From Escherichia phage VEcB: 64,000 bases of DNA. The notes under the pieces are model-generated. The model saw only the letters and a list, made by a program, of their open reading frames with translations. It was not told the DNA's origin and did not search any database. This document shows positions 6,982 to 61,971 of this stretch, one piece after another (position 1 is the first letter of the stretch; each line of letters starts with the position of its first letter). The DNA lies in sequence record NC_052663.1. One strand, given 5' to 3'. The translations under genes were made by a program, and so were the position numbers.

Positions 6982-7401
6982 TTGGCTATTTCATCTTATT
7001 CAAAGATCAGTAGAAGCACATCTAATAGTGGCTACAATGCAGTATTTATTGATCGAAATTTAGGTTATTATTCTTGGTACTTACCTACAGAACAGTACCC
7101 AGACCAAACATATACAGTAACTCTCGATGGAGTAGATTATGATATACGTTTGAGATGGAATACAAGAGATCAAGCGTGGCAAATGCAATTAGGATTATCA
7201 GGAGACAATCCTAGTGTAACTTTTAAAGTAACCAATGGTTTAGATCTTCTAGAACCATATAAGTATATAGAATCTGTACCGGATGGTCAACTCTATTTGG
7301 TAGATACTGTTAAAATAAACGGTAGACCTAATTACTATGACACAGGTGTAGATAAAAGATTTGCTTTGGTTTATATCGACGCTCTTCCATATCAAGCATG
7401 A
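6982..7401 (+). CDS. hypothetical baseplate protein
   Basis: 139 aa ORF in baseplate gene run. Confidence 0.35.
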   Translation: MAISSYSKISRSTSNSGYNAVFIDRNLGYYSWYLPTEQYPDQTYTVTLDGVDYDIRLRWNTRDQAWQMQLGLSGDNPSVTFKVTNGLDLLEPYKYIESVPDGQLYLVDTVKINGRPNYYDTGVDKRFALVYIDALPYQA

Positions 7402-7416
7402 TAAAAGGAGTTTTAA

Positions 7417-8427
7417 ATGGCAGAAAAAAGAGATTATACAAAAGCTCCTGCACCCAATCTAAACAGAGCATACAAACTGTTAATAGGTACAGCTACTAAT
7501 ACTAAAGAAAAAAGGACAAAAAATTCCTCTTTCAAATCTACAGTAGACTTAGATACTAAACTAGGGGATGCTAAAAAATCAACCCCTAATTTGTATGTTA
7601 TTACGGAGCACCAAATATCTTTCACAATAAGAAAAGATAATAATAAAGATCCTAATCAAGCCGAGATAACTATTTATAACCTAAGTGATGATACTGTTAA
7701 TTATATTAACAAAGGTATTCGTAACAACTTGGCTGTTGCTTTAGCGGTAGGTTATGAAGGTCAAGAGTTAATTATGATCTTTAAGGGAACGGTGCAATGG
7801 GTGAGTGATACGTTTAACAATACAGACAGACGTACAGTGTTACATTGCCTGGATGGTGGTATTAACATCTCCGAAGCAAGGACAAGCCGAAGTTATCCGA
7901 AAGGTACAAAAGTAAGTAAAGTTGTTAAAGACCTAGTTAAAGATTTAGGTACTACAGAAGGTAATATTCACGTAGACACAGAGAAAACTTTATCATCTGC
8001 AACAGCTATGTGTGGTAACACATCACATTACTTAGAAAGTATCTGTAAAGGTATTGATCACAATGTGTCGATACAAGATGGATCTGTTTACGTGACACCA
8101 AGATCACAAATGTCTAGTGCAAGATGTGCATATATTAGTGCAGAAACAGGTTTAATTGGTAGTCCAGAACCTTTCCACAATGATATTAAACCGACACAAA
8201 AAGTAACCAAATCTTCTAAGAAAGCTAAAAAGCCTACCGATGGTGTTAAGTTCAGATGTGAAATGAACGGTGCTATCTTACCAGAAAAAACTGTTTGGCT
8301 CAAGAGCCATAACTATGATGGTGGTTTTAAGGTGGTGTCTGTTGTTCATACAGGAGATAGGGAAGGTAAAGACTGGACAACTGAAGTAGAGTCTGTATCT
8401 GTATCTGCAATTATTAAGAAGGGCTAG
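7417..8427 (+). CDS. putative baseplate hub-like protein
   Basis: 336 aa; directly upstream of the spike gene; RBS AAAGGAG. Confidence 0.4.
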   Translation: MAEKRDYTKAPAPNLNRAYKLLIGTATNTKEKRTKNSSFKSTVDLDTKLGDAKKSTPNLYVITEHQISFTIRKDNNKDPNQAEITIYNLSDDTVNYINKGIRNNLAVALAVGYEGQELIMIFKGTVQWVSDTFNNTDRRTVLHCLDGGINISEARTSRSYPKGTKVSKVVKDLVKDLGTTEGNIHVDTEKTLSSATAMCGNTSHYLESICKGIDHNVSIQDGSVYVTPRSQMSSARCAYISAETGLIGSPEPFHNDIKPTQKVTKSSKKAKKPTDGVKFRCEMNGAILPEKTVWLKSHNYDGGFKVVSVVHTGDREGKDWTTEVESVSVSAIIKKG

Positions 8428-29411: not shown

Positions 29412-29420
29412 TATATCTCC

Positions 29421-29449
29421 TTCAAAGAAAAGGAGCCGTTAGGCTCCTT
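29421..29449 (-). terminator. rho-independent terminator (minus strand) downstream of the SSB-like gene
   Basis: 8 bp stem AGGAGCC/GGCTCCT, followed on the minus strand by TTCTTTG; sits between the SSB stop and the methyltransferase RBS. Confidence 0.5.
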
Positions 29450-29471
29450 ATATTCACACAATATTTAACTA

Positions 29472-30419
29472 TTAGAAACAGTGCAGGAAGTTTCGACCAT
29501 ACTGCAAACCAATAGGAGCAAATGGGATATCATCATCGAAATCTTGAACAACAGGTTCTGGTTCTTTCGGTGCTGGCTCTTTCTTCTCTACTTTTTTAGT
29601 TTCTTTCTTAACTTCTTGTACTGGGGTAGACATTCCACGGATAGCAGCAGCTACTTTATCAGACAAAGCAAGAACTTCACGAGCAGCTTCAATAATCTCT
29701 TCTGCCGTTACAGTTTTACCTGTATGATCACGACAAGCGTTAAGAATTGCGTGTCCAACTGAAGCACCAAGATCATAGTCAGTCACATCAACGCCACGAT
29801 CTTTAGCAATTTCTGCTTTCAGAGTAACAGTTGCAGATTGTACCACACCAGCCAAGTCGAAAGCATCACCTTTCACACCAGCACGTAGAAGCTCCAGAGC
29901 GCCATTTACAGCGTGTCCTGTTTCAATCCCTACAGTATCACGTTTTTTGTAGTTAGGTTTGCTACCTTCGTTATTAGATGGCTTATTTCCACCTTTTGAA
30001 GAAGATTGTGCTTGCTGAACACCTTCTGTTGAAAGAACAGTGATTTTACCTTTAGAGGAGTTGTAGTATGTTTTGCCATTCCATTCGGAAGGTTTAACAT
30101 CCATAGTTACTTCTACACCTTTTTCGATAGTAATCCACTTATCACCATCTTTAACTTGCAGGTTTTCATGTTCTGGGTGCAGTTTAACTTCACCTAGGCT
30201 AACCCAAACACCTTTATCATCAGCACCAGCACCTTTCTCTTTAATAAGCAGAGATGCTTTGTGAGTTGATTCAATTTTCTTATCTGGCTGACCTGCAACC
30301 TTAATATAAGAGACTTTCATTTCATCAAACTTATCCAGTTTGACATATTCAACGATACCTTCAGCCCAGAATGCTTCTTTTTTAGTACGACGGTCGATTT
30401 CAGAATTAATTACTGGCAT
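29472..30419 (-). CDS. putative single-stranded DNA-binding protein with SSB-type acidic C-terminal tip
   Basis: 315 aa; extreme C-terminus DFDDDIPF preceded by Lys/Glu/Pro-rich linker, as in bacterial SSB C-tails; N-terminal domain not obviously canonical OB-SSB. Confidence 0.5.
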   Translation of the reverse strand: MPVINSEIDRRTKKEAFWAEGIVEYVKLDKFDEMKVSYIKVAGQPDKKIESTHKASLLIKEKGAGADDKGVWVSLGEVKLHPEHENLQVKDGDKWITIEKGVEVTMDVKPSEWNGKTYYNSSKGKITVLSTEGVQQAQSSSKGGNKPSNNEGSKPNYKKRDTVGIETGHAVNGALELLRAGVKGDAFDLAGVVQSATVTLKAEIAKDRGVDVTDYDLGASVGHAILNACRDHTGKTVTAEEIIEAAREVLALSDKVAAAIRGMSTPVQEVKKETKKVEKKEPAPKEPEPVVQDFDDDIPFAPIGLQYGRNFLHCF

Positions 30420-30435
30420 AAATTCTCCTCTATAA

Positions 30436-30834
30436 TTACATTACTTTAACACAAAACTCTCGTAAAAGAGTAGCGTCAGTTTCTTCCAACAGGTATTTAC
30501 CAAGACCAATACCAAATCCTATTTCACCACTTTCGAAATGGAGGATTTGTATCTTTTCTCCACCAAGGTTAATTACTTTTGCTTTTCCAGGATTATCCAA
30601 AACATCTCGTATTGTATCCTGTAGTAACATAAGTTCACGTTTTGTGATAGTGGTTTCAGATATCTCTTTGTTTTCTACTCTCACTGTTAAACGATTGTAT
30701 CCACCAAAGAGACATAGTATTTGAATAAAAAAGGTATTATCTTGAGGTTCAACATCTTTTTTAGTTAGCTCAAGACGATTAGTTTCTCTACTATAGAACG
30801 TCTCGACTAAGATTTTAGAACGATTATCTGTCAT
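30436..30834 (-). CDS. hypothetical protein
   Basis: 132 aa ORF with ATG and GAGGA-like RBS. Confidence 0.35.
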   Translation of the reverse strand: MTDNRSKILVETFYSRETNRLELTKKDVEPQDNTFFIQILCLFGGYNRLTVRVENKEISETTITKRELMLLQDTIRDVLDNPGKAKVINLGGEKIQILHFESGEIGFGIGLGKYLLEETDATLLREFCVKVM

Positions 30835-30877
30835 TCAAGTCCTCATAATAACACATAATTATAATGTTTGTCAACAC

Positions 30878-31492
30878 TTAAATTTTAAATTCTTCGTTGT
30901 TAAATGAATCCAGTGTACGTACTTCTGGTTCTTTGGGAATGAAAACGTCTTTTACAAAGCGGAACATAGGGAAACGTTCTGCCATTTTACGGACGTGTGC
31001 TTCTTTACCTGTGTATCGGTGATTAATAGTACAAATATTAGTTTTCAGTGCAAATTCAAAATCTGGATGATATACATAATTTTGACCATCCCAGTAACAC
31101 AAGCAAATAGCTACATCAAAGTTCCATACGATTTCACTGCGTACACCTTCTTCCATGATCATAAAGTTAAACTTAAGATCTTTATAGTATGCTTCAAATA
31201 CCCATTTCAAATGTGGTAGTTCGGCATAAGTGTGTTCTGTTTGCTTAGTAATTTGTTTAACATTACGTGCACCAACACCCAACATCAAAAATTTCTCTAC
31301 TAATACAAGTGTATTGTGGTTAGGCATACGCAAGTAAATGTCAATATCTTGCGCAGGTTTCTCTAATCGCCAGTCACGTACAGCGCCGCCAGCTACAATT
31401 GCAAACGGATCTACCAGTTGGCACATACGTAATACTTCTAAAGCTCGTACTTTTTGATCTTCAATATTCATATTTTCTCCTATCGTGTCCAC
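30878..31492 (-). CDS. polymerase-beta-type nucleotidyltransferase, CCA-adding-enzyme-like head domain
   Basis: 204 aa; motif FAIVAGGAVRDWRLEKPAQDIDIYL (GG-x12-DxD) closely resembles the catalytic head of class II tRNA nucleotidyltransferases; no HD domain present. Confidence 0.5.
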   Translation of the reverse strand: MDTIGENMNIEDQKVRALEVLRMCQLVDPFAIVAGGAVRDWRLEKPAQDIDIYLRMPNHNTLVLVEKFLMLGVGARNVKQITKQTEHTYAELPHLKWVFEAYYKDLKFNFMIMEEGVRSEIVWNFDVAICLCYWDGQNYVYHPDFEFALKTNICTINHRYTGKEAHVRKMAERFPMFRFVKDVFIPKEPEVRTLDSFNNEEFKI

Positions 31493-32076
31493 TCTTTGTG
31501 TTGTTCTACATGCTCAAGCATTTCATTATATAGTGCTTTAAGATGTGGAACAACTCTTTCATCTTCAGTTTCAAAGAATTTTGTAAGCTGTTCTGCCTTA
31601 GCCTTCAACCAACAAAGATGCGCTTCAATTTCAGTATTAAAACGTCCCAGTGTTATAACACGTCCATCACGTTGAATATGGGCTTTATACTTTTTACGAT
31701 CTTTTTCGTAACTACATCCTACCATAGTCCCATGAGATCTTTTACTTACTCTATAAGCTAAGAACTTGTTAAGATCTCCTGTTACTAAAAGACAGGTATC
31801 GGGAGAGTAAACTCTCCCTCCTATAATATCTTTATCAAGTTCTAAGTTTTCCCAGTTATCCCAAGTTTGCAACCAAGAGTAGAAATTGGAGAACAGTTTC
31901 CATTCTTCACAAACCGTCACCCCATTATAACAAGGATCACGTTCTTGTTGACAAGGGGAGTAACACCTCCCCAACATAGCCATCCATTTCATATAATGCG
32001 GCGTTAGTTTCTTACTACCAGGTAGCGTACTCTCGCCTTCCAAATCATTAATACCTTCACCATATACGGTAAGCAT
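31480..32076 (-). CDS. HNH-family homing endonuclease (free-standing)
   Basis: 198 aa; YNGVTVCEEW...F..F..W pattern and Cys/His content typical of phage HNH endonucleases; located directly upstream of the DNA polymerase gene. Confidence 0.55.
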   Translation of the reverse strand: MLTVYGEGINDLEGESTLPGSKKLTPHYMKWMAMLGRCYSPCQQERDPCYNGVTVCEEWKLFSNFYSWLQTWDNWENLELDKDIIGGRVYSPDTCLLVTGDLNKFLAYRVSKRSHGTMVGCSYEKDRKKYKAHIQRDGRVITLGRFNTEIEAHLCWLKAKAEQLTKFFETEDERVVPHLKALYNEMLEHVEQHKEWTR

Positions 32077-32103
32077 AAAAACTCCTTTAAAATCAAAGAG
32101 ATG

Positions 32104-34683
32104 TCAGTGACAAGTTGACCATGAACTACCAACATCGTAACCAGCAGTGAGAGGTACATTAAGATTGTAATACTCACCAGCTTTATTAACAGCGATAGAT
32201 GCTAATTCTCCAGCACGACTGTAGGCTGTAAACCAACCACCTTTCGGAGATTCATGTACGTTAGCCCAAATCTTGCCAGTACGTTTCTCTTCCTCTTCTT
32301 TCCAGGCATTAACCTTATCCAAACATTCTTTATCAATTTTCTTTTGTTCTTCTGGATCATCAACTTGAGTCCAACCTAAAGATTCTTTAGAGAACCATTT
32401 AAAATGCACCAGATCACGAGTTACTTCAAGCTGTGCTTCATCGTGATATGCAATCATTTGTTGAACGAATGACTTATTTTTCCAGTCATCAACAAAAAAG
32501 TCAACAGCTAATCCTTCTTCTTCGATAAGATCGTCGTAGATAACCATTGCTCTTTTTGCACAAATAACACCACCACTCTGGAACAGAGAGTTAAGTATTG
32601 CGTGTGCAGATCGTGTAGGTACTTTCCTACCATCAATACCAAGAATGTATTTCTTACCTGTTTTAACCCAAAAATCATGCAGACGTTCTTTAAGAAGCGC
32701 AAGAGGTTTTGCAGCTTCCCAGAAAGCATCGTATACAAGCTGTCCTGTATACATATCACTACCTATAGTTTTTGCTACTTTTGCAGCTTGAGCACCATAA
32801 GTAATACCATACTTAACAGATTTAGCAGGGCTTCGTTCAAACTTACGACCAATAGTGTCAGAAATACGTCGAGCCATCATTGTATGAACATCATTAGGTT
32901 TTTCCAATAATAGAGCATTACAATATTCATGTGGTTCCTGCTCGTACCGCCAACAGTAGTGTGATTCTATTTTTGCCTCAAGAGAATCAAAGTCATAACC
33001 AATTTGGAAGTATTTTGGAACTTCTACACCAAATAAGTTACGCATTTCATATCCGTACAGAGATGTTACACGTGGGATATTTGCTACTAACCTATGTTTC
33101 ATACGAGACGTAGCTGCATCACACGTTGCAGCAGGAGTCGGTATACGACCATCAGCCCTTACTGCCGCCAGATAACCTTTATCGTAATCCTCTTCATCCT
33201 CTTCCCAATCAGCACCACCGCCTAGAATAGAGTTTCTACGATGTTTATACGTAAGATACTGCACAATCTGCGTAGCATAAGGAAACTTTTCACCTAGTGC
33301 TTCCAAGTTAGGACAAATATCCTTCTCTTGCCCTTTTGTAAAGGAAGGGTTAGTAAGCACCTTAACACCACGACCTTTAGCTTTAGCAATACGATCTCTT
33401 AGTTTCCATTCCAAAGTTTCTGGTGTGCACTCCAGATGATCACATCTATCCTGGCAGAAGTTAGATGCTAATGTTTGATCAACATAGTCACGAATAGCTT
33501 TCTCCATTTGTGCTTCATCTTTCTTAATCTTAGTGCCAGATTTAAGAGTGATATCTTTATCTTTATATTCAGATGGACTCCAACCTAAACCAACTAACCA
33601 ATTTTTAATATGTGTAGTGTCGTCTAAAGTAGCAGGTACTGTAGGATCACAAATAGGTTCTTCTGCTGGAATAGGCAGTTTAAACTCTTTACCTAATGCA
33701 AATAACCACCAACCATCTTCTTTTTGTACAAGTTCACCAGAATGTTTCTCTGCAAACTTTATCATGTTACTTGAAGGTTCACCATTCTTTTTAAACTGTA
33801 GTTTAGGTGGAATGAATGATTTCAAATAACCTTTAGTAGCAGGTTTAGGAGGTAGCACAGGTTCTGCCTCTAAACGACATGCTTCCATTCGAGCATCCAG
33901 ATCACGAATATTATCTTCTGCTTGCTTCATATTGAAAGCAAAGCCACGGTGCTCTTGACGTGTAATAATATCAGCTACACGTTGTTCTAAGTTAAATGGT
34001 TCAGACCACTTATTATAATCACCCCACTCTTCCATCAAATAACGGAACACTGCGGTGTTAGCTTTGTTATCGTAAATACAGTAATACAGCATATCTGCTG
34101 CAAATGTTTTAAATCTTTCAGTTTCAGGGATGTTTTTTCTAAAATCAATTTTAACATCCCCTCCAGCTTTCTTAGATAACTCTGCCAGACTATGACCACC
34201 GAAGCGATCAGGGTTTAGTGTCTTACTTAAGATCATAGTATCACAAATTTCAATGTTACTATTACCCCAAGTATTGTACTTAATACTGTAGTTGAGTTTA
34301 AAAAATAATTTAATTGCCAGTAAGTCAAAGTTAATGATGTTATGTCCAACTACTTTGGTAATTTTATAGTTTGAATTACCTTTAAATTTACCTGTTCCAT
34401 TTACAAAATCAGGAAAATCTTTAAGAGGGAAATGGGTATATTCTAAATGCTCATATTCCTCCAGTCGGTATTCATACTTTCCGTCAGTCTCAATATACGG
34501 ACGACCATCGAAAAGATATTTATCACCATCATGGAAAGCAATAATCTCTCCAGTATCATGACTTTCGCACACAATACAGTGCATTGCAAAACTATCTTTT
34601 AAACGATATGGACTTGCCAAGTAATCTACACTTTCGTCATTAAGCAAGTTGTTACTTTCAATGTCGAAAGTAAAAGCTCCCAT
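32104..34683 (-). CDS. DNA polymerase, family A (T7 gp5-like) with 3'-5' exonuclease domain
   Basis: 859 aa; Exo I FDIESNNL; motif A DFDSLEAKIESH; motif B RSPAKSVKYGITYG; motif C YHDE; RBS GGAGGG before ATG. Confidence 0.85.
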   Translation of the reverse strand: MGAFTFDIESNNLLNDESVDYLASPYRLKDSFAMHCIVCESHDTGEIIAFHDGDKYLFDGRPYIETDGKYEYRLEEYEHLEYTHFPLKDFPDFVNGTGKFKGNSNYKITKVVGHNIINFDLLAIKLFFKLNYSIKYNTWGNSNIEICDTMILSKTLNPDRFGGHSLAELSKKAGGDVKIDFRKNIPETERFKTFAADMLYYCIYDNKANTAVFRYLMEEWGDYNKWSEPFNLEQRVADIITRQEHRGFAFNMKQAEDNIRDLDARMEACRLEAEPVLPPKPATKGYLKSFIPPKLQFKKNGEPSSNMIKFAEKHSGELVQKEDGWWLFALGKEFKLPIPAEEPICDPTVPATLDDTTHIKNWLVGLGWSPSEYKDKDITLKSGTKIKKDEAQMEKAIRDYVDQTLASNFCQDRCDHLECTPETLEWKLRDRIAKAKGRGVKVLTNPSFTKGQEKDICPNLEALGEKFPYATQIVQYLTYKHRRNSILGGGADWEEDEEDYDKGYLAAVRADGRIPTPAATCDAATSRMKHRLVANIPRVTSLYGYEMRNLFGVEVPKYFQIGYDFDSLEAKIESHYCWRYEQEPHEYCNALLLEKPNDVHTMMARRISDTIGRKFERSPAKSVKYGITYGAQAAKVAKTIGSDMYTGQLVYDAFWEAAKPLALLKERLHDFWVKTGKKYILGIDGRKVPTRSAHAILNSLFQSGGVICAKRAMVIYDDLIEEEGLAVDFFVDDWKNKSFVQQMIAYHDEAQLEVTRDLVHFKWFSKESLGWTQVDDPEEQKKIDKECLDKVNAWKEEEEKRTGKIWANVHESPKGGWFTAYSRAGELASIAVNKAGEYYNLNVPLTAGYDVGSSWSTCH

Positions 34684-34751
34684 TCTCCCTCCTTAAAATA
34701 TTTCTAAAGTCTTAATTTGTTAATACTGTACCACAAATTAATTGTTTTGTA

Positions 34752-34769
34752 AAGGGGCTTTCGCCCCTT
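34752..34769. other. GC-rich hairpin in the intergenic region upstream of the polymerase gene
   Basis: Stem AAGGGGC/GCCCCTT with TTTC loop; the T-tract is on the plus-strand side, so strand of action is unclear. Confidence 0.3.
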
Positions 34770-34773
34770 CTTG

Positions 34774-35179: not shown

Positions 35180-36952
35180 TTAATAAGAACCATCAGGAAT
35201 ATTCTCTGGGTTACTTGTGTATTGATCGTAATCGTGAAGTGTAGCTGTTTTAATCTCATAGAAGAAACTACCTGCTGCACCAGTCTCTGAGAACTCACGG
35301 TTCTTTAGAATGTAGCAATATGTGCGGTTACGTTCCATAGGATCTTCAGCTTGTTTATCACGCTCCAGCGCAATTGTGATACCAGCACCTTTAGCAAGGA
35401 AGCTACTACCCATTGCATCATCTTCTACAATATGTTCATTACTATTGTTAGAAGACTTTTTAACGTGTGAAATTACAACAATGGTTATTGCATACTCTTT
35501 CATAATGCGTTTCAGCCACGTCGCAAGTTCCTCTTGTTGTGACACGTCCATACCAGAAAGCAAGTCAGAATAAGGGTCGATAACAAGAATGGTTACTCCG
35601 AAATAAATAATCATTTCCAGAACCTTCTCTTTAATCACATCTACGTTAGCTCCACGATCATCACAAACATAGAAACGTGGTGTTCCATCTTCTCGTTCGT
35701 AAAAATCACGAATCTTTTCTTCATTATCTTTTAAAATCTTTTCCTTCTCTTCTTTCGTTTTACGGTGAAGAGGGATATGCAAGAATGAAGACAGTAAGTT
35801 ACGAGAATACTTCTTATACGTTGCCTCCAAAGATAAAATACCAAGAGTATGTTCTGGGTGTGCAAGAATAATGTGTTTCGTAATCTCGTTAACCAACAGT
35901 GTCTTACCGATACTTGTTTTTGCAAGTATAACAGTAATTTCTTCTTCTACCAAGCCTCCACCTAACATATTCGAAGCAACACGCATGAATGGAGGAAGGG
36001 TGATCATTTTAGCTTCCAGGCATTCCAAGGCTGCTTCATATAGTACGTTAGAAGCGTAAACACCAGCAGGTGTGTACAGTTTAGCTTTGAAAAAGCGATC
36101 AATAAAATGATCAATTTTTCCTTCTACTAGTGCCTGGTTAGGATCTTTAACATCCGTTAGTTCCATCACGTAAACTTTATTACGTGGTAAGATTTTAACA
36201 CATTTCTCAACTGCTGCACGTCCAGCTTCATCATTATCCATACATAGAACAATCTTTTTAAATTGATCTAAGAATTTATAACGATGTTGAAGCTGCTTAT
36301 GCAGAGATGTTTCGCCACAAGTACCAGATACTACAGCAGGAACAGGATATTTACCACCCTTGTTATAATCTTTTAGCATCTGTGTTGCAGCCAGCATATC
36401 GTGTTCACCACCAACGATTAGAATAGTACCGCTGTGGTTACGATATTTAAACTCCCCAAAAAGATCACAATCCTTTCCTGTTTCACCGATAGGATGTGAG
36501 AAATCTTTTGGATCGATACGTTGTTTATACCCAGCAATATTGTAATCTTTAGTTGTAGGGTATAGTGTTGAAATTACTTCGCCAGTAGCTTCATCGTACA
36601 TATAACGTACACCGAAAGGCTTAGAGATATCTTCACGAATACCGCGATAACCTTTTGGATTAGTTCCAGTGCTGGCTTTTAGTTTATCATGTACTTCTGG
36701 ATTAAACTCACTACCCAAGATATCCTCCTCTTCAATTTCTTCGCCGTGTGCATTTAACCATTTTTGATCAGGGATAGTAAAGCCACAAGAAAAACAATGT
36801 GCGCCTCGATGGTCTTCATCGGCATCTAAGCCATATACCATCAAATTGTTTTGTGATCGATCACGCCCTCCTTTCATACAACGAGGACACCCAGTATGTC
36901 CTTCTTGACTTAGATCAATGTTATACCCATATTTATTTACAACATAAGACAC
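35180..36952 (-). CDS. bifunctional DNA primase-helicase (T7 gp4-like)
   Basis: 590 aa; GTG start with AGGAG RBS; N-terminal zinc ribbon CPRC...CFSC, central TOPRIM-like region, C-terminal helicase with Walker A AKTSIGKT. Confidence 0.8.
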   Translation of the reverse strand: MSYVVNKYGYNIDLSQEGHTGCPRCMKGGRDRSQNNLMVYGLDADEDHRGAHCFSCGFTIPDQKWLNAHGEEIEEEDILGSEFNPEVHDKLKASTGTNPKGYRGIREDISKPFGVRYMYDEATGEVISTLYPTTKDYNIAGYKQRIDPKDFSHPIGETGKDCDLFGEFKYRNHSGTILIVGGEHDMLAATQMLKDYNKGGKYPVPAVVSGTCGETSLHKQLQHRYKFLDQFKKIVLCMDNDEAGRAAVEKCVKILPRNKVYVMELTDVKDPNQALVEGKIDHFIDRFFKAKLYTPAGVYASNVLYEAALECLEAKMITLPPFMRVASNMLGGGLVEEEITVILAKTSIGKTLLVNEITKHIILAHPEHTLGILSLEATYKKYSRNLLSSFLHIPLHRKTKEEKEKILKDNEEKIRDFYEREDGTPRFYVCDDRGANVDVIKEKVLEMIIYFGVTILVIDPYSDLLSGMDVSQQEELATWLKRIMKEYAITIVVISHVKKSSNNSNEHIVEDDAMGSSFLAKGAGITIALERDKQAEDPMERNRTYCYILKNREFSETGAAGSFFYEIKTATLHDYDQYTSNPENIPDGSY

Positions 36953-36964
36953 AGGATTCTCCTA

Positions 36965-37234
36965 CTAAAATGATTCGTTTGTCTCCATAATATATTGCAT
37001 TTCCAAATCTTCCATATGTTTCTTAAATTGGTAAACAATTTCCGATGGGGAAATATCTATATCAAAAAGGTCTTTTGTACCAGAATAAAACCTAATACCA
37101 TCAACAATAAGACCACCATAATAATCCCAATCACTTTCTCGTGAGAAAGGGTTAGGTTCTTCATAATAGTAATCTACTTCAACAATAATAGGTTCTTTAT
37201 TATCTTGTTTATACTCAAAATCAAAAGTGTGCAT
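36965..37234 (-). CDS. hypothetical protein
   Basis: 89 aa acidic ORF. Confidence 0.3.
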   Translation of the reverse strand: MHTFDFEYKQDNKEPIIVEVDYYYEEPNPFSRESDWDYYGGLIVDGIRFYSGTKDLFDIDISPSEIVYQFKKHMEDLEMQYIMETNESF

Positions 37235-38178
37235 TATAAATCCTCGATAAGCAGTCTGCGGGTTTCATTTAAATCATCAATATTGTAGTTATCTCTTACA
37301 TACTTAGCAAGAGCCAATCCTTTCTCAATACAAACATCAGGGGATTCGATTAAGTATTCTACAATATCTTTCCACTCTTTAACTGAATCAGCAAAGAAGA
37401 TTAGATCTTTAAATTCTTCAGTATAATAGTTCTCTCGTGGCGAACAAACGAGTGGCAAACCTTTAGCACCAGCTTCAAGAATTTTTAAATTACTTTTGGC
37501 ATTATTAAAATGATTATTTACTAATGGAGCTATGGAGATTTGATGACCATCGTATGCTTCCATATAACACTCATAAGGACGAATACCTTCATAAACACAA
37601 TCTGGTTGAATATTTTCTTTAATTTGCAACCATTGAGCACTACTTAACTCTTCGTGATCTCTACGAAATCCACATAAAGTTAAATCTTTACCAAAATCAG
37701 GAAGAATTGCTAAATCATGTTTATGTGTTTCACTTCCCGCCCAAACCAGTGGACTTTTAGAATAACGATCTTTAGTAAGAACAAACTGTCCTTCATCAAA
37801 AGGTAGTCCGTTAGGCACAATATGTACATTATCATTGTATTGGCTTAATTCAACCTTTAATGCCGGAGTTGTTGTAGTTACAAGATCACTTCTTTCAAGG
37901 AACCATTTTAGGTCATCTCGGATTTGATTTTCAAATAATCCTTCAAGCATATGCCCTTCAGGAATAATTAAAGAATCATCCAGATCCATTACCAATTTAA
38001 ACCCAAGTTGTTTAAGAGCCAGGAAACCTGGCTTTCCACGTGTTGGTACTCCATTGAACACAAAAATATTATGCTTAGGATTAATGGTCAGTTTGCGTTT
38101 ATATGGCAAAATGATTCTATGAAAATCACATACACTATACTTTTCATTTCCGCGTGTGTCAAGAATAATATTAGGCAT
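37234..38178 (-). CDS. putative glycosyltransferase (GT-B-fold-like), paralog 1
   Basis: 314 aa; C-terminal motif KSNLKILEAGAKGLPLVCSP resembles the sugar-donor-binding signature of GT-B enzymes; clear paralog of the next gene. Confidence 0.5.
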   Translation of the reverse strand: MPNIILDTRGNEKYSVCDFHRIILPYKRKLTINPKHNIFVFNGVPTRGKPGFLALKQLGFKLVMDLDDSLIIPEGHMLEGLFENQIRDDLKWFLERSDLVTTTTPALKVELSQYNDNVHIVPNGLPFDEGQFVLTKDRYSKSPLVWAGSETHKHDLAILPDFGKDLTLCGFRRDHEELSSAQWLQIKENIQPDCVYEGIRPYECYMEAYDGHQISIAPLVNNHFNNAKSNLKILEAGAKGLPLVCSPRENYYTEEFKDLIFFADSVKEWKDIVEYLIESPDVCIEKGLALAKYVRDNYNIDDLNETRRLLIEDL

Positions 38179-38189
38179 ATAGCTCCTTA

Positions 38190-39164
38190 TTAAAGACTTT
38201 CAATAACTTGACGACGCAGTTCATTAGCATCTGCAAGATTATAATTAAGACGAACGTGTTCTGCAAGCATCATACCACGATCTTCTGTGTATCTAGGGTT
38301 CCTCATTAGCTTGACAACTTCATAATGCCAAGATGCTTTAGAGTCTGCATAGATAACAGCCTTTGCATCTACCGGATTGAAGTACGGCAGCACAGGAGAA
38401 CAGATAATAGGAAGACCCTTTGCACCTGCTTCCAAAATCTTCAAATTGCTTTTACAGTTGTTGAAGTCATTATCTACCAGAGGAGCAATTGCAATACTGT
38501 GACCGTCATACACAGACATATACTCACCTAAATTTTTAATAGCTGGTTTATACTGTGCATTTGGAATTTTACGTTTTACTTTAACCCACTCCGCAGTAGT
38601 TAGATACTGACTATTATTTCCAACAGGTGCAGAAGGATACACTTCATACCCTGCAATTGTCAATAGCGTATCATCAAATGTATTAGCTACAAGAGATAAA
38701 TCAGGTTCATGGCTTGCTCCTCCCGCCCAAATAATAGGCGTGTCAGAATAACGGTCTTTTGTCAAAGTAAATTGACCTTCGTCGTAAGGTAGTGCGTTTC
38801 TAATAACGACAACATTACGATTTAAATGACGAATTTTGTAAGCTAGGTATTCTGTTGTTACAGTAACCACATCTGCTAACTTAATCATCTCTACAATAGT
38901 CTTTGAGTGATTAGTAAATACGCCAGCCATATAATGTTCAGGATTAAGCGAATAAAAATCATCTAAATCAACAATAATCTTAACACCTTGTGCCTTCAGG
39001 CGTTTAACTTCGTCTGATCCACGAGAATACACTCTATTAAAAACTAAAACGTCTTTCTTAGGTTTAAACGTATTTCCAGCAAATGGCATTACAATACGAT
39101 GGTAATCACAACCACTGCCTAACTTATTATCACACTTAAGTACAGGAGTATTAGGATTTACCAT
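38190..39164 (-). CDS. putative glycosyltransferase (GT-B-fold-like), paralog 2
   Basis: Start set at ATG 39164 (GAGGAGG RBS; aligns with paralog 1 N-terminus MPNIIL/MVNPNT); shared motifs CD(F/Y)HRI, IAPLV(N/D)N.FNN.KSNLKILEAGAKGLP. Confidence 0.5.
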   Translation of the reverse strand: MVNPNTPVLKCDNKLGSGCDYHRIVMPFAGNTFKPKKDVLVFNRVYSRGSDEVKRLKAQGVKIIVDLDDFYSLNPEHYMAGVFTNHSKTIVEMIKLADVVTVTTEYLAYKIRHLNRNVVVIRNALPYDEGQFTLTKDRYSDTPIIWAGGASHEPDLSLVANTFDDTLLTIAGYEVYPSAPVGNNSQYLTTAEWVKVKRKIPNAQYKPAIKNLGEYMSVYDGHSIAIAPLVDNDFNNCKSNLKILEAGAKGLPIICSPVLPYFNPVDAKAVIYADSKASWHYEVVKLMRNPRYTEDRGMMLAEHVRLNYNLADANELRRQVIESL

Positions 39165-39837
39165 ATTTTTGAGCCTCCTCATAAGAGATAAAAGTTTTAC
39201 CATTGCGAAGATCCTCCAGGGATTGTTTATATTGTTCCCAGTTTACACCAATCCCCTGTTCTTTCTCTTCTTTTGACAGATTCGCAAAAGGTAAAGGATT
39301 GTCTCCAAATACATCATCAGGATGGATAAACGCCATAATTCGAATAGGACATGGTACGCCTTGAATACCTCGGTTCAAACCTGCCAGTGGGACGCGATGA
39401 ATCCACTCTGCATCTTCATACCCATAGCCGTGGGTGTATGAGCGGAAATAGCCAGCTTTCTCAATAACTGCACGGGAATACATACCAAACTGGCACATTC
39501 CTAGCTCCCAAATAACCACTTCCCCTTCAATACCTTTTACTTTATCTTTAAAGTATTCAGGCATACCAAAGAAATCCCAACCATTTTCCTTCGCCTGTTT
39601 TACAAAATATGTTTCCCAACCTTGAACAACAGGATAGCAATCATCATCAAAAATAAACCAGTAATCATATCCTTCATCATAAAACTTTTTCATCAGTTCA
39701 TTACGAGCATATGCAACACCTTTTCGTTCCCGATCATACTGTACAACAAAAGTAGCACTAGGATCAGTCACAAGATAATCTTTAAGAGGACGCTTACCTA
39801 CAGTAATAACACCAACACCAATTTTTGTATTTTCCAA
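39151..39837 (-). CDS. putative glycosyltransferase, GT-A fold (family-2-like)
   Basis: 228 aa; N-terminal GVGVITVGKRP nucleotide-binding start and acidic DDD motif FIFDDDCYP typical of GT-A glycosyltransferases. Confidence 0.55.
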   Translation of the reverse strand: MENTKIGVGVITVGKRPLKDYLVTDPSATFVVQYDRERKGVAYARNELMKKFYDEGYDYWFIFDDDCYPVVQGWETYFVKQAKENGWDFFGMPEYFKDKVKGIEGEVVIWELGMCQFGMYSRAVIEKAGYFRSYTHGYGYEDAEWIHRVPLAGLNRGIQGVPCPIRIMAFIHPDDVFGDNPLPFANLSKEEKEQGIGVNWEQYKQSLEDLRNGKTFISYEEAQKYGKS

Positions 39838-39846
39838 AATAACTCC

Positions 39847-40410
39847 TTAAATAATTTTATTCATGTCTTGACAATGTAAAAGGTGTGAAACAGCTTTTCT
39901 AGGATCATCATTACCTAAACGGTATGTGTGAAATAAATATAACCCACGTAGTAAACCTAGCCTTTTATTGTTAGCGTGCAATGCTTTAGAGAAAATTATA
40001 TCAAACTGTATTGATCTTTCCTCAAAAGGAATTTCATTCCACAGACTCTTACGAAAGAGAAGAAAGAATCCTGCTAAGATAGCATCTGTAGGTACTTCCT
40101 CTATTGAGTTTCCCCATTCTAGATGTGCTCTTTTTGCAATCTCAATGTGGTGTAATATATTCGGATCTTCACTTCTTTCATTATTAAATAATTGATATGT
40201 TGATCCCAATCTGTTACAAGATGCACCAAGAACATCAAAATCAGGATTTGAACGGACAATTGATTCCAGCCAAGCAGGTTGTTCTGGAAGAAGAAACATT
40301 GTATCAATGTCTCTTAGGCAAATCCAACTATCTTCTGGTAAGACACTTATTGTGTCATTGATACCTTTTCCAATATCTCCAGAAAGATAGGGAGTTATGT
40401 GAAATATCAT
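39847..40410 (-). CDS. hypothetical protein, possible GT-A-like glycosyltransferase
   Basis: 187 aa; ICLRDIDTMF DxD-like motif; adjacent to three glycosyltransferase genes. Confidence 0.35.
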   Translation of the reverse strand: MIFHITPYLSGDIGKGINDTISVLPEDSWICLRDIDTMFLLPEQPAWLESIVRSNPDFDVLGASCNRLGSTYQLFNNERSEDPNILHHIEIAKRAHLEWGNSIEEVPTDAILAGFFLLFRKSLWNEIPFEERSIQFDIIFSKALHANNKRLGLLRGLYLFHTYRLGNDDPRKAVSHLLHCQDMNKII

Positions 40411-53346: not shown

Positions 53347-53817
53347 TTAGTCAGATTCCCAAATGTTGTCTTTCTTAACCCACATTCGTTGATTATCTGA
53401 ACCTCTATAACGTTTCGTTGTTGGTTGAGTCATATCATACTTACCATCTATTACTATGTCAACCAGTTTTTTAATTTTCTCTGGAATTTCTTCAAAAAGA
53501 TATCCTGTATATAAGACAATATCTTTTTTGTTTCCAAAACAATCTCTTACCTTCTCAAGAACATACTCTACAGTGTCAATGTTCTCTTTGTCAAGAGGTT
53601 CACCACCTAAAACTGTTAATCCTTTAATGAAAGGTCGAGATAAATCTTCCAAGATAAGATCTAATGTTTCAGTAGTGAACTCTTGTCCGTAGTTATACGA
53701 CCAGGCTTTCTGGTTGAAGCAGCCACGGCAACCGTGGCTACAACCGCTCACCCACAAAGAGCATCTTACACCGTCACCGTTGAGCATGTCAACAGGTTCA
53801 TATCCGGCGTAATTCAA
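53347..53817 (-). CDS. nrdG: anaerobic ribonucleoside-triphosphate reductase activating protein (radical SAM)
   Basis: 156 aa; radical-SAM cluster motif CSHGCRGC near the N-terminus; directly downstream of and coupled to nrdD (ATGA overlap). Confidence 0.8.
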   Translation of the reverse strand: MNYAGYEPVDMLNGDGVRCSLWVSGCSHGCRGCFNQKAWSYNYGQEFTTETLDLILEDLSRPFIKGLTVLGGEPLDKENIDTVEYVLEKVRDCFGNKKDIVLYTGYLFEEIPEKIKKLVDIVIDGKYDMTQPTTKRYRGSDNQRMWVKKDNIWESD

Positions 53818-54755
53818 AAATGTTTCTCCCTTTCTAATACTTCTTGCATTTTACCTTTATTATAAGGGCGAGAGTTAGGGGCAGAAAGGTATCCTGACAC
53901 TCTTCTGATCACAGATATGGATTCTTCTTCATGATTACCGCAACTTGGACACTCGAAGCCTTTAGCCGTTGCTTTAAATTCACCATGAAAACCACATTTG
54001 AAACACTGATCTACAGGTTGGTTCACGCCAAAATAAGGAATTTTGTTGTAGGCATAATCTACAAGAGTTTCCAGTGCTTGCAAGTTATTTTTAAGGTTTG
54101 GTGTTTCTACATAACCTATGTTCCCACCATTACTAATTTGTGCAAAACCTTCCTCATAATCCCACTTTTGGAACGGGGTAGTGTGCATCCACACAGGTTG
54201 ATGGAAAGAGTTTGTCAAGTAGTCACGATCAATAGAACCAGGATAGCGATCATTTAATGCTTTGGCAAATTTATAGCACAAGGATTCTGCTGGTGTTCCA
54301 TACAAACTAAAAGCTAAACCAGAACGTTCTTTAAATGTGCCACAGATATCCTTCATATATTGAAGGATGTTTTTACCCATTGCTTTTGGATTGGTGTTAC
54401 CTGGGTATAAAATCTCCATAGCTTCTGCTAAACCTACATAACCGATACTAATAGAGGCATAACCACCTTCGAATAGTTTACCAATCTCTTCATTAGCTTC
54501 TAGTCGAGCTAAAGCCCCTTCCATAAACAATGTAGGGTTTTGAGATGCTTTGGTATGTCTAATACGGTTAACACGTAGCATATGTGCCTTATACGCCATC
54601 TCCATATGTTGTTCCAACAGTTCAGTAAATAAGATGCCCTTTTCACGGGACTCTGCTGCAATGATAGGTAAGTTTAAAGAAACTACGCCTAAGTTGAAAC
54701 GACCATCATATTTTTCACCTTGCTCTGTTGCATAGTATGACAAGAAACTTCTACA
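53814..54755 (-). CDS. nrdD: anaerobic ribonucleoside-triphosphate reductase, exon 2 (C-terminal part)
   Basis: Contains the C-terminal zinc ribbon CFKCG...CPSCG and glycyl-radical motif RRVSGYL; the frame upstream of Cys codon 54753..54755 has no ATG/RBS and continues the exon 1 frame after an approx. 770 nt insertion. Confidence 0.65.
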   Translation of the reverse strand, partial: CRSFLSYYATEQGEKYDGRFNLGVVSLNLPIIAAESREKGILFTELLEQHMEMAYKAHMLRVNRIRHTKASQNPTLFMEGALARLEANEEIGKLFEGGYASISIGYVGLAEAMEILYPGNTNPKAMGKNILQYMKDICGTFKERSGLAFSLYGTPAESLCYKFAKALNDRYPGSIDRDYLTNSFHQPVWMHTTPFQKWDYEEGFAQISNGGNIGYVETPNLKNNLQALETLVDYAYNKIPYFGVNQPVDQCFKCGFHGEFKATAKGFECPSCGNHEEESISVIRRVSGYLSAPNSRPYNKGKMQEVLEREKHF

Positions 54756-55525
54756 CATTATGTTCAAAGTGGCTCGCAAGGCCACTCCCGCACCATTACG
54801 TGCTGCTGCATGTCACCATGCAGATCAGACTATATCTTCATGCTTAAAGCATGTCTACCATTTGGGGTGTCATAGGCTTACACCCTACGCTGCTACATTC
54901 ATCACAGCTAGTCGTTAGGCATTTCGTAACAGAACTCATAATCATAATTATTTGGTGCTCCGCGCTTTAAGATTGCAGATATTCTTTTTCTGTCCAACCC
55001 TAAAGCGTCAGCACAACATCTCAGACTTTTAAAGTAAAAAACTTCACCAGTAGCCTTATGAGTAGCTTTTACACTGTGACACCTTGTGTAGAAAGCATAA
55101 CAGTTATTATCGTAACCCTCTTGCGTGTTGTCTGGACAAGATCCCCACTCAAGATTGTATACACTGTTGTCTTTCCTATTGTCACCTTTATGCTTCACAT
55201 AAGGTAAATTGTCTGGATTGGGTAAAAACGCTTCAGCTACAAGTCTGTGCACCCGAAAGCAAACAGTTTTCTTGTTTTTACGTATTCTGACAAGTTGGTA
55301 TCCTGTGTTTATTTCTTCCCACGAGCGAAGGATTCTTTCATCCTTATACCTGGTACAATAAACATTTCCAAGCTCGTCAATTTCATACCCTTCAAAATCA
55401 CGAATTTGTTTTCTCATATCAGTACCCCCCTTCTTCTGTGTTGGGAGTTCTGTTACGTTTAGCACGGGATTGTCTCGTTGAGAGTTCCCCCGTTTAGGCA
55501 GATTTTACATGAGCAGTTATAGTTT
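54756..55525 (-). mobile_element. putative group I intron interrupting nrdD, carrying an HNH homing endonuclease ORF
   Basis: An approx. 770 nt insertion separates two halves of one NrdD reading frame. Proposed 5' splice site follows a U (exon GGU) and the proposed last intron nt is G. Internal ORF is in a different frame with its own RBS. Boundaries inferred from recalled NrdD conservation around SMG/CRSFLS, not from a folded intron model. Confidence 0.5.
54908..55417 (-). CDS. HNH homing endonuclease (intron-encoded)
   Basis: Start set at ATG 55417 (AAGAAGGGGGG RBS); N-terminal FEGYEIDELGNVY (NUMOD4-like) and HNH region VHRLVAEAF..H.....N.....N. Confidence 0.6.
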   Translation of the reverse strand: MRKQIRDFEGYEIDELGNVYCTRYKDERILRSWEEINTGYQLVRIRKNKKTVCFRVHRLVAEAFLPNPDNLPYVKHKGDNRKDNSVYNLEWGSCPDNTQEGYDNNCYAFYTRCHSVKATHKATGEVFYFKSLRCCADALGLDRKRISAILKRGAPNNYDYEFCYEMPND

Positions 55526-56383
55526 ACCCATGCTTGTGACGCGACCATCTGAAGATCCTGTAACTTCTTTGTTTAAAGGTACAGAGATAAAATCAGGATA
55601 AATGCGTTCAGCACAACACTCCATTGCCAGTTGCTTCAAATCATAATTTGGATCGCCAGCTTTCATGTTAACACCATCTTCCAAGAAGAAGATAACTTTA
55701 GGAAACACAGGAGTTACCCTATCTTTTCCTAATCCTTGTTTGTGCACCATTAGGTAGTTTTTAGTGATCATTCTACCAAAAGCAGAGGTATCCAAACCTA
55801 AACTAATTGTTATAAAAGGTGACTGACCATTTACACTCATTAGGGTGTTCACCTGGTAGATTAAAGTTTGCATTGCATCATAGACCTGTTTATCTACCAT
55901 ACGCATAGCAATATCATAATCGCCAACATCGGCATATATTTTATTAAAACTTGCTTTAACGTATTGACTAAGCCCAGTATCAACATGTGCACAAGTTTGT
56001 CCACCATATTGGCTAGAAGCTACTGCTTGAATAATTTGAGTTAGGACAGTAGTTGCTACACCAATAGATTTTGGTTTTTCAATATGTGCATTACCAATAC
56101 GGAAACCGTTCTCAAGCATATCTTGGTAATTTACCAGGCAACAATTAGTTAAAGGTGAGAGTAAATAATCTAAATCGTGGATGTGACCATACCCACTTTT
56201 ATGCCATTCTGCTAAATCTTCAGGCAAAATATGGGTCATTGCCATGTGCTTGCTTAGGATACCTGCTAGTAAATCTCGGTGAGTATTAACAATCATTGCA
56301 GGTTTGTTTGCATTTTCACGAGTAAATTCTTCGGATGTTTGTTCGAGGAATCCGATTACATCCTCATATAGTTTTTGGGTCAT
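55526..56383 (-). CDS. nrdD: anaerobic ribonucleoside-triphosphate reductase, exon 1 (N-terminal part)
   Basis: Start set at ATG 56383 (GGAGGA RBS); conserved NrdD blocks HIHDLDY, LTNCCLV, PKSIGVAT, SQYGGQT, NGQSPF, DPNYDLKQLAMEC; the ORF runs on 2 codons into the intron before a stop. Confidence 0.65.
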
Positions 56384-56392
56384 TAATCCTCC

Positions 56393-56425
56393 GTGGAAAA
56401 TAAAAGCCAGCATTAAGCTGGCTTT
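56393..56425 (-). terminator. rho-independent terminator (minus strand) between gene 56473..57423 and nrdD
   Basis: 9 bp stem AAAGCCAGC/GCTGGCTTT followed on the minus strand by TATTTTCC. Confidence 0.5.
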
Positions 56426-57440: not shown

Positions 57441-57875
57441 TTAGTTTAAAATTTCTTTGGCAATGGTAGAAGCAAGTTTTCCATCATATTGATTAGGATA
57501 CTCTGCTTTAAGGTGTTTCATCATATCTGGCATTTTCTTGCCTGTCAAGGCAAATTCTTCAGCAATCGCTCGAAGGTCATCTTCAGATAGCATTTCTGGT
57601 AAATATTTTTCCAGAGTGGTGATATCACGCATAGCTCGCTCACATTTGCTAATGGAAGCATTAACTTTCTTAAGTGAGTCTAGCTCCTCTTTAGCGTGTG
57701 CAATACCAATCTTAACAATGTTAATCATAATATCATCTTCTGATTTATTTAGATTTGCCTTTTGAGTACGAGCAAGGTCAAACTCACCAATAATATTAGT
57801 TAACAAAGCAAAAGCACCTTTATCGGTTGTACGTGCTAAGATACGATCTGCTTTCATTTGTGTCACAATAGACAT
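57441..57875 (-). CDS. GatB/YqeY-domain protein
   Basis: 144 aa helical protein whose length and pattern (KYLPEMLSEDDLRAIAEEFALTGKKMPDMMKHLKAEYPNQYDGKLASTIAKEIL) match the YqeY/GatB C-terminal domain family. Confidence 0.45.
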   Translation of the reverse strand: MSIVTQMKADRILARTTDKGAFALLTNIIGEFDLARTQKANLNKSEDDIMINIVKIGIAHAKEELDSLKKVNASISKCERAMRDITTLEKYLPEMLSEDDLRAIAEEFALTGKKMPDMMKHLKAEYPNQYDGKLASTIAKEILN

Positions 57876-61493: not shown

Positions 61494-61494
61494 T

Positions 61495-61971
61495 TCAACC
61501 TCTCTTAATTTGTTTAACAAGCATAGGAACAAAATCTCGTTTTAAAATTTGTTCAATAATATGATCAGGTAGCTGTTGGAAATTATAATTAAAAGCTACT
61601 GTCTCACCTTTAGGTGTTTCTACCCGCACATATAACATGTTACGAAGTTTATCCACTTGTGCTGTATATTCTAAACCATGTAATTGATGCATTGCAAACA
61701 TCAAATCATCAGTTTCAGTTTGGAATCTATCATTTGCTTGCATTAAGGATAAGGTAAAAGGTAGATTTTCCCTAAGAGCCACCTTCTTAGGAACTAGTGA
61801 AGGAAAATACTCACCAATAACTTCCTGTGTAAGCTGGATACACTCTTTTTCAAGTTGGTTTTGTTCCTTAAGTTCACAAACACTTTTTTGTAAAGTGTTA
61901 ACCTCTTTTTGCAAAGCTGCTAGTTGAGCACTTAACTTTCTTTTTTGATTACGACCAAAACGTTTAGACAT
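61495..61971 (-). CDS. hypothetical coiled-coil protein
   Basis: 158 aa ORF with basic N-terminus and leucine-zipper-like segment. Confidence 0.35.
   Translation of the reverse strand: MSKRFGRNQKRKLSAQLAALQKEVNTLQKSVCELKEQNQLEKECIQLTQEVIGEYFPSLVPKKVALRENLPFTLSLMQANDRFQTETDDLMFAMHQLHGLEYTAQVDKLRNMLYVRVETPKGETVAFNYNFQQLPDHIIEQILKRDFVPMLVKQIKRG

Follow-up and report, generated by a model that had tools for sequence, protein, structure and literature searches.

What is the role of a short nucleotidyltransferase that a coliphage encodes among its DNA replication genes, and that resembles a tRNA CCA-adding enzyme reduced to its N-terminal part? The gene in question is carried by Escherichia phage VEcB (NC_052663.1), a Justusliebigvirus (Stephanstirmvirinae) coliphage, on the minus strand of the 64,000-nucleotide stretch analyzed here (hereafter the window). 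A first, sequence-only reading had described its product as a 204-aa protein of the CCA-adding class, and had considered repair of tRNA ends or modification of a nucleotide signal as its function. We find that the best-supported description is that of a stand-alone, short-form Gad2-type phage nucleotidyltransferase (NTase) with a class II head fold, for which a counter-defence role can tentatively be proposed.

In the gene model used here the NTase spans 30878..31471 (minus strand; ATG 31471, stop TAA 30878..30880) and has 197 residues. The pol-beta signature is present where it had been read, with GGAVRD at 31390..31373 and DIDIY at 31348..31334. Together these form motif A (31334..31390), in which G28-G29-A-V-R32-D33(-W34) would provide the NTP-binding loop and helix and D42-I-D44-I-Y46 the two metal-binding carboxylates; A-G28-G29 … D42-I-D44-I follows the Pol-beta pattern of an hG[GS] loop and then Dh[DE]h. 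A27, G28, G29, W34, D42 and D44 are invariant in 62 family sequences, and in a larger set of 141 members, to which the conservation values below refer, G28, G29, W34, D42 and D44 are kept in at least 99%, A27, A30 and R32 in 96–97% and D33 in 91%. The conserved columns are Q6, A10, A27-G-G-A-(P)-R-D-W34, D42, D44, Y82, E93 and Q/N102, followed in the C-terminal half by F118, [ST]121, C123, F138, Y153, H/Y159, K162, K/R166 and F167; the only charged positions conserved in at least 70% of the members are D21, R32, D33, D42, D44 and K162. E93 (31193..31195), on the strand formed by residues 88–96, is the putative third catalytic carboxylate, placed by the order of secondary-structure elements in the model and not by residue-level superposition. 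The best reading of this conserved active site is that the NTase is catalytically competent.

Downstream of motif A lies a core that the family has in common with Gad2 (31103..31168), with N102 (Q in 84% of the family), F118 and [ST]-[IV]-C at 121–123. It is followed by a C-terminal subdomain (residues 125–175; 30947..31099) consisting of a beta-hairpin, a helix, a strand and one 'neck-like' helix with Y153, H159, K162, R166 and F167, and by a disordered acidic and aromatic tail (residues 176–197; 30881..30946; …PKEPEVRTLDSFNNEEFKI). The structure model is ordered to about residue 175 only, pLDDT values being 55–70 over the last 20 residues. The protein is thus modelled as a Pol-beta enzyme built as the head and first neck helix of class II CCA/poly(A) polymerases, and we assign its family and fold with high confidence. 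LnuA, ANT and KNT, representing the antibiotic NTases that the sequence-only reading had named as a possible contrary outcome, were not the best structural match. The isoelectric point is uninformative on nucleic-acid binding, with a family median of 6.3 and an E. coli Cca head and neck that are also acidic.

Class II CCA-, CC- and A-adding enzymes and poly(A) polymerase I (PolyA_pol, PF01743) have in common with the window NTase the N-terminal helix, the GGxVRD…DxD motif A and the head fold, and the NTase model runs on into the first neck helix. It is however under half the size of these enzymes (197 aa versus 412 aa for E. coli Cca), and the usual C-terminal domains are missing, as had been noticed from the sequence: no Pfam match to a neck, body or tail (PF12627 and the like) or to an HD domain was found in the NTase, whereas Cca homologues have PF12627 and PF01966. 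Since the chain ends after one neck-like helix, it lacks the nucleotide-templating neck pocket, the tRNA-binding body and the tail. At the sequence level, the case for class II membership is slight. Alignments of motif A with 6ibp, 9kma and the Cca of E. coli extend across about 20–45 residues and can be trusted over about 20–40, and the matches to PDB chains cover the N-terminal helix and motif A only. The PolyA_pol model scores 20.6 bits, under its 23-bit cutoff, and is matched by 10 of the 62 family members at E<=0.01; the NCBIfam CCA equivalog reaches 14.9 bits against a cutoff of 290. Neither motif B (RRD) nor motif D (EDxxR) is present in the NTase or conserved among the 141 members, in which no arginine other than R32 and K/R166 is conserved, and in the model the equivalent stretches would read N-F-D…A-I-C and K-E-A-H-V. 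A residue-level alignment to E. coli Cca could be obtained for motif A only (hhalign probability 17–31%) and failed in global mode, the Cca comparison profile being of low diversity (Neff 1.3; sequences all at least 87% identical). The window NTase is very probably not a CCA-adding enzyme.

The nearest experimentally studied relative of the window NTase is Gad2, a 400-aa anti-Gabija protein of Bacillus phage SPbetaL7, whose knockout makes the phage sensitive to Gabija; it carries an AlphaFold-predicted NTase domain and is toxic when expressed (bioRxiv 10.1101/2023.05.01.538930). Two database relatives of the window NTase (P0001 and P0002) bear a precomputed Pfam label, PF26128, named 'Gad2 (weak)'. 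We compared the two families at the profile level, using the SPbetaL7 reference (OQ921347.1, WIT28108.1), 120 homologues and a 38-sequence Gad2 alignment. The NTase-family profile matched SPbetaL7 Gad2 alone with a probability of 87.8% (E 3.3e-6, 118 columns) and the 38-sequence Gad2 profile with a probability of 95.7% (hhalign, E 1e-8, 114 columns). The alignment joins family positions 23–154 to Gad2 residues 25–141, and extends past motif A through the Q102 strand, F118…[ST][IV]C and F138, with family core columns falling on Q88, F102, T108 and C110, which are invariant or nearly invariant in the Gad2 family. In addition, the family hidden Markov model (HMM) matched 119 of the 120 Gad2 homologues (median 19 bits, top 29) and none of 120 enterobacterial Cca sequences. 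Both proteins are phage-encoded, with a predicted NTase core and about 115 residues of homology that include AGG…DxDxY, the (v)Q(x)I strand, F..[ST][IV]C and the following F motif. As judged by these profile comparisons, the homology of the NTase catalytic core to the N-terminal NTase domain of Gad2 is real but remote, and with its retained class II motif A the family appears to connect class II enzymes to Gad2. A search of the Gad2 profile against PDB sequences found no relative. The two groups differ in setting: Gad2 belongs to temperate Bacillus phages and prophages, where it lies in an anti-Gabija locus, whereas the phages with the NTase family are virulent and infect Gram-negative hosts, and mostly carry its gene within the replication module. 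Expression of relatives has proved toxic for both groups.

Other short NTases resemble the window protein in fold. A BFVD search returned many phage proteins of 165–215 aa with the same fold. Klebsiella phage fHe-Kpn01 encodes Gp22, a 182-aa CCA-enzyme-like protein toxic to E. coli on overexpression (PMC7291057), and gp22 of P. putida phage Emajogi is an NTase encoded beside a primase/helicase gene, likewise toxic on overexpression, with homologues 'annotated in some phages as Gad2 family'. Both belong to the 165–215-aa class with a class II head fold and lie in DNA-metabolism regions, near primase/helicase or polymerase genes; likened to the window NTase by fold and not by sequence (TM about 0.55–0.65), they are structural analogues. 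NP_344798.1 of Streptococcus pneumoniae (PDB 2la3), a bacterial, 191-aa stand-alone 'CCA-adding enzyme head domain', is 9% identical. MenT/AbiEii toxins score lower against the window NTase than class II enzymes do, and neither the DUF1814/MenT models nor the PADLOC defence models, those for MenT/AbiEii included, gave a match; these bacterial toxins have a cognate antitoxin, whereas no such partner is conserved at NTase loci.

The family is large and essentially phage-restricted. An exhaustive HMMER scan at E<=1e-3 gave 995 clusters (50% identity), nearly all of 175–220 aa (roughly 190 aa) and matching positions 3–175. Viral contigs yielded 104 relatives of the window NTase, and 185,579 species genomes (one genome per species) yielded six loci, all on contigs of metagenome-assembled genomes and one of them identical to phAPEC8. 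Among the papers searched, none characterizes this NTase family.

In order to describe its genomic surroundings, ORFs within ±8 kb of 89 loci were clustered, and neighbours were tallied for the 50 NTase groups left after dereplication at 70% identity. A T7 gp4-type primase-helicase was the most frequent neighbour (31 of the 50 groups), followed by a family A DNA polymerase (25), an HNH homing endonuclease (18), a 5'-3' exonuclease-like protein (12) and an ATP-dependent DNA ligase (10), with median distances to the NTase of 1–2.3 kb. In the Stephanstirmvirinae, of which the NTase is a core gene, the order polymerase, small or HNH genes, NTase, 132-aa ORF and an ORF resembling single-stranded DNA-binding protein (SSB) is conserved. 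The 132-aa ORF, considered as a conserved partner, was rejected, being confined to this subfamily.

The window has the same arrangement, which agrees with the placement next to replication genes in the sequence-only reading. Its minus-strand order is a T7 gp4-type primase-helicase (35180..36952; primase/helicase in the annotation of phage alia), a family A DNA polymerase upstream of the NTase (PolA; 32104..34683; DNA polymerase I in alia), an HNH homing-endonuclease gene (31480..32076; PHROG 953 HNH endonuclease, E 8.5e-74), the NTase, the 132-aa ORF and the SSB-like ORF (29472..30419). The latter has DFDDDIPF near its C-terminus, is 61% identical to phAPEC8 gp085, gives a weak tail match to TIGR00621 (ssb) and is annotated as SSB in ESCO9. 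The HNH gene is an insertion that separates PolA from the NTase, and is not found at this position in phAPEC8 or FKP3. Over positions 29000–35000 the window shares 99.5% identity with vB_EcoM_ESCO9 and 98.9% with phage alia, whose gp038 carries the RefSeq annotation 'nucleotidyltransferase'; the window NTase belongs to PHROG 1614 (E 1.2e-34).

The frame at 30878..31492 is open throughout on the minus strand, as the ORF list had it, and the 204 residues first given to the NTase correspond to a start at GTG 31492, which overlaps the 3' end of the upstream HNH gene. ATG 31471 is the likelier start, because an AGGAG (31481..31477) precedes it with a 5-nt spacer, because it matches the RefSeq model of alia gp038 (594 nt, a 98.5%-identical gene) and because the conserved N-terminus of the family aligns at that Met. 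The upstream extension to GTG 31492 (31472..31492, minus strand) holds the AGGAG and the TAG stop of the HNH gene (31482..31480), which overlaps the NTase ribosome-binding site, and is probably not translated.

A scan of the window for minus-strand terminators between PolA and the NTase found just one weak site, inside the polymerase gene. Directly 3' of the NTase stop lies a sigma-70-like promoter (30845..30874, minus strand; TTGACA-18-TATTAT with the TG of an extended −10, 11 of 12 matches), the top-scoring site of the promoter scan by consensus match only, which would drive the 132-aa and SSB-like genes. With no convincing terminator before it and a near-consensus promoter after its stop, the NTase seems to close a transcription unit that it would apparently share with PolA. 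A terminator-like hairpin (29449..29430) follows the SSB-like gene.

The NTase changes faster than its neighbours. Between the window and phAPEC8, identity is 36% for the NTase, with the catalytic residues kept, as against 79% for PolA, 61% for the SSB-like protein and 56% for the 132-aa ORF, a pattern of arms race or shifting constraint and not that of a core replisome enzyme. In the FBKp34-like phages of Klebsiella, the homologue, 47% identical to the window NTase, is no longer in the replication module and shares 22 nt with a gene for a 430-aa eukaryote-like PARP (WGR, PARP_reg and PARP catalytic domains), which is the behaviour of an accessory gene; TerC and TelA genes are nearby. In Vibrio phage ICP1 the NTase is also outside the replication module, near genes for DNA ligase and NadV. 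The ICP1 isolates carry a form of 137–139 aa that ends right after the S-V-C motif and is head only (locus L003, 4986..5405; ICP1_2006_A, ADX88944); the ORF downstream of it, considered as a split C-terminal half, was rejected, showing no similarity to the C-terminal subdomain.

Some members of the family end in tails that resemble the C-terminal tip of SSB. In the sister genus, the NTase phAPEC8 gp083 ends …RLEEDDIPW and stands beside an SSB that ends …DFDDDIPF; …DDDIPW is another NTase end in that genus, and other family NTases end …NNIPF, …ESIPY, …EKPIPF and …VEIPF. Of 81 locus NTases, 7 end in [ILVT]P[FWY], versus 20 of 1412 background ORFs (Fisher p = 4e-4), most of these 20 being SSBs themselves. 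The tail of the window NTase (…TLDSFNNEEFKI; …NNEEFKI) is acidic, aromatic and disordered, with a net charge of −2, and is not a canonical tip. These features suggest that NTase tails may tether the enzyme to the replisome or to the SSB interactome. The SSB-like ORF of the window holds the exact E. coli SSB tip DFDDDIPF, followed in this genus by 15 extra residues (APIGLQYGRNFLHCF), and the SSB-like protein ends …IPF in phAPEC8, FKP3 and other relatives. Binding pockets for SSB tips normally recognize the terminal carboxylate, which the 15-residue extension would bury. In nearly all phages that bear the NTase, the primase-helicase has a terminal F or Y preceded by acidic or polar residues (…NPENIPDGSY in the window), much as T7 gp4 and gp2.5 carry, after an acidic stretch, aromatic ends that bind the polymerase.

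As to function, the NTase would use an NTP and two-metal catalysis to add one or more nucleotides to a hydroxyl acceptor which, by analogy with characterized class II relatives, would most probably be a nucleic-acid 3' end. It would be made together with the phage DNA polymerase and, if it acts in the manner of Gad2, could be directed at the host or its defences, shielding replicating phage DNA from a Gabija-type DNA-targeting system. We regard this counter-defence role, drawn by analogy with Gad2, as possible, with somewhat less than an even chance of being correct. A more specific version, in which a short Gad2-type NTase is recruited through its SSB-tip-like tail to the replisome or the host SSB interactome, and nucleotidylates the 3' ends of replication intermediates or a bound host factor so that phage DNA ends are hidden from end-sensing nucleases such as Gabija, is unlikely to hold as a whole.

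Several points weigh against this proposal. The link to Gad2 is remote, with 16.3 bits for the Gad2 HMM on the window NTase and 23–24% identity over the core, and the placement of the family closer to Gad2 than to class II enzymes draws mainly on alignment length and HMM scores, since the low diversity of the Cca profile precludes a rigorous ranking of the two. The conserved C-terminal ~260 aa of Gad2 (residues ~142–400, many invariant) are absent from the window NTase: nothing aligns past residue 141 of Gad2, and the window protein has only 40 further residues from there. The NTP loop reads GGTITSLF in Gad2 and GGAVRDW in the NTase. Column 93, that of the putative third carboxylate, is not universally acidic, holding an acid (E or D) in 69% of the 141 members and an amide (N or Q) in 18%. 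The mechanism of Gad2 is still listed as unknown in a 2026 review (PMC12904381), so that working like Gad2 carries over a phenotype and not a chemistry, and a Gabija-type target for these phages would itself be carried over from Gad2. Finally, the NTase is a core gene in strong synteny with the primase-helicase and PolA, as one would sooner expect of an accessory to replication than of an anti-defence gene, which would be variable.

If the more specific version, with recruitment through the tail, is correct, the family would reveal the chemistry of Gad2-type counter-defence as well as a new enzymatic accessory of T7-type replisomes, and would represent an evolutionary bridge from class II CCA/poly(A) polymerase enzymes to Gad2. 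Few anti-defence proteins are predicted enzymes; Gad2 is one of them, and the NTase family is a very large sister family to it. The gene is moreover a core gene in well-studied coliphages, including the BASEL isolates EmilieFrey, JohannJBalmer and PaulScherrer, and with small, confidently predicted proteins in such phages Gad2-type biochemistry becomes directly testable in E. coli. While the RefSeq label 'nucleotidyltransferase' was already known, the placement with Gad2, the failed tests for a CCA enzyme, the SSB-like tails and, over about 50 lineages, the linkage to replisome genes are new.

Among other explanations, the NTase could tail host RNAs at their 3' ends, adding untemplated nucleotides to mRNA as poly(A) polymerase I does or to tRNA acceptor ends in the manner of MenT. 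Faster RNA decay or a block of translation would follow, and nucleotides could be fed to the phage ribonucleotide reductases and DNA synthesis. Toxicity is known from proteins other than the members of this family, and on overexpression only. The window NTase has no RNA-binding body or tail domain and matches neither PADLOC nor MenT-type models, and RNA tailing would leave the SSB-like tails and the tight linkage to replisome genes unexplained. We consider it rather unlikely.

The NTase could also be a housekeeping accessory of T7-type replisomes, tethered by an acidic, aromatic tail of the kind seen in the phage SSB and primase-helicase, and acting in ordinary phage DNA replication on primer or DNA 3' ends or nucleotidylating a replisome protein. 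The presence of primase-helicase and polymerase genes close by in so many groups, the apparent co-transcription with PolA, the status of core gene in the Stephanstirmvirinae, the enrichment of [ILVT]P[FWY] tails (with …EEDDIPW in phAPEC8 gp083 beside its SSB) and the aromatic ends of the primase-helicases all speak for such a role. On the other hand, the NTase changes far faster than the replication proteins around it (36% versus 61–79% identity), is outside the replication module in FBKp34-like phages and in ICP1, where it is head only, and ends in the window in …NNEEFKI, which is not a canonical tip; we know of no T7-type replisome that needs such an NTase. This role, too, is unlikely.

Repair or maturation of tRNA 3' (CCA) ends, which the sequence-only reading had named as one of two plausible functions, would draw on the class II-like motif A and head fold, on database records in which some homologues are named 'putative tRNA nucleotidyl transferase / poly(A) polymerase', and on a phage lineage that carries 15 tRNAs, an RNA ligase and a phosphoesterase. 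The missing RRD and EDxxR motifs, the lack of body and tail and the subthreshold PolyA_pol and CCA equivalog scores do not bear it out. CCA is encoded in 15 of the 15 tRNA genes of phage alia, the host possesses its own Cca, the window contains no tRNA gene, and a tRNA gene lies within 8 kb of the NTase in 6 of 80 related viral loci. One of these 80, on a 148-kb viral contig, is the sole case of an 11-tRNA array, which starts 2.5 kb downstream of the NTase (locus L023, 11155..14622).

A separate tRNA-binding partner could in principle make up for the missing domains, and the YqeY-domain protein pointed out in the same reading was considered for this part. The ORF does exist (57441..57875; Pfam YqeY 30.3 bits, cutoff 27), on the minus strand like the NTase, but lies 26 kb away and its partnership with the NTase is unsupported. 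YqeY homologues are present in Justusliebigvirus and were not detected in Phapecoctavirus phages, though these carry the NTase, and none of the 2124 ORFs in the 89 NTase loci is YqeY-like. The candidate was rejected on this distribution, proximity within 2 kb being found in just one Klebsiella-phage lineage. In these FBKp34-like phages (loci L096, 8001..10936, and L097) the order is NTase, PARP-like gene, two ORFs and YqeY, the last 2 kb downstream of the NTase. We hold tRNA repair by the window NTase, with or without such a partner, to be very unlikely; labels such as 'tRNA nucleotidyltransferase / poly(A) polymerase' on these phage genes are unjustified and are no evidence of phage tRNA repair.

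The other function raised initially was modification of a nucleotide signal. Synthesis of a decoy or competitor signal such as the 3'3'-cGAMP or c-di-AMP made against TIR-STING by MNT-like phage NTases, which are also minimal Pol-beta enzymes with an anti-defence role but of a different clade, is extremely unlikely. These are the one phage NTase family known to make decoy cyclic dinucleotides, and their motif GS-x-AY[GAN]T-x4-SDxD (bioRxiv 10.1101/2022.06.09.495361) has no regular-expression match in any ORF of the window. The same study identified the anti-defence gene Atd1 of Pectobacterium phage PcCB7V in a screen of genes flanking MNT-like NTases (bioRxiv 10.1101/2022.06.09.495361), and AntiDefenseFinder lists Atd1 in Justusliebigvirus and Phapecoctavirus.

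Within the family, one subclade carries a domain of about 95 aa (MKFRVxSPEHS…GYxW…EEYVL…), in one or two copies, fused N-terminally to the NTase (loci L044, L054, L062, L045–47, L056–57 and L033) or encoded just upstream as a separate ORF (7345..7953; L065/L066/L078). No Pfam model matches this domain, and the window lacks it. Two records labelled 'Campylobacter phage A145/C3' (MG065645.1 and MG065656.1) carry genes 100% identical to those of the E. coli phage in the window, and are probably mislabelled or contaminated.

Elsewhere in the window, four glycosyltransferase-like ORFs (37234..40410, minus strand) lie directly upstream of the primase-helicase, one of which (39151..39837) weakly matches a TET-associated glycosyltransferase. 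Phage alia encodes a complete dTDP-rhamnose pathway, which may form with these ORFs a DNA- or surface-glycosylation module. The anaerobic ribonucleotide reductase gene nrdD is split into two parts (55517..56413 and 53814..54785, minus strand) by an HNH/I-HmuI-like homing endonuclease gene (54908..55465), and is followed by nrdG (53347..53817). A UvrD-like helicase (58719..61532, minus strand) bears an intein, with Intein_splicing/Hint matches at residues ~267–613.

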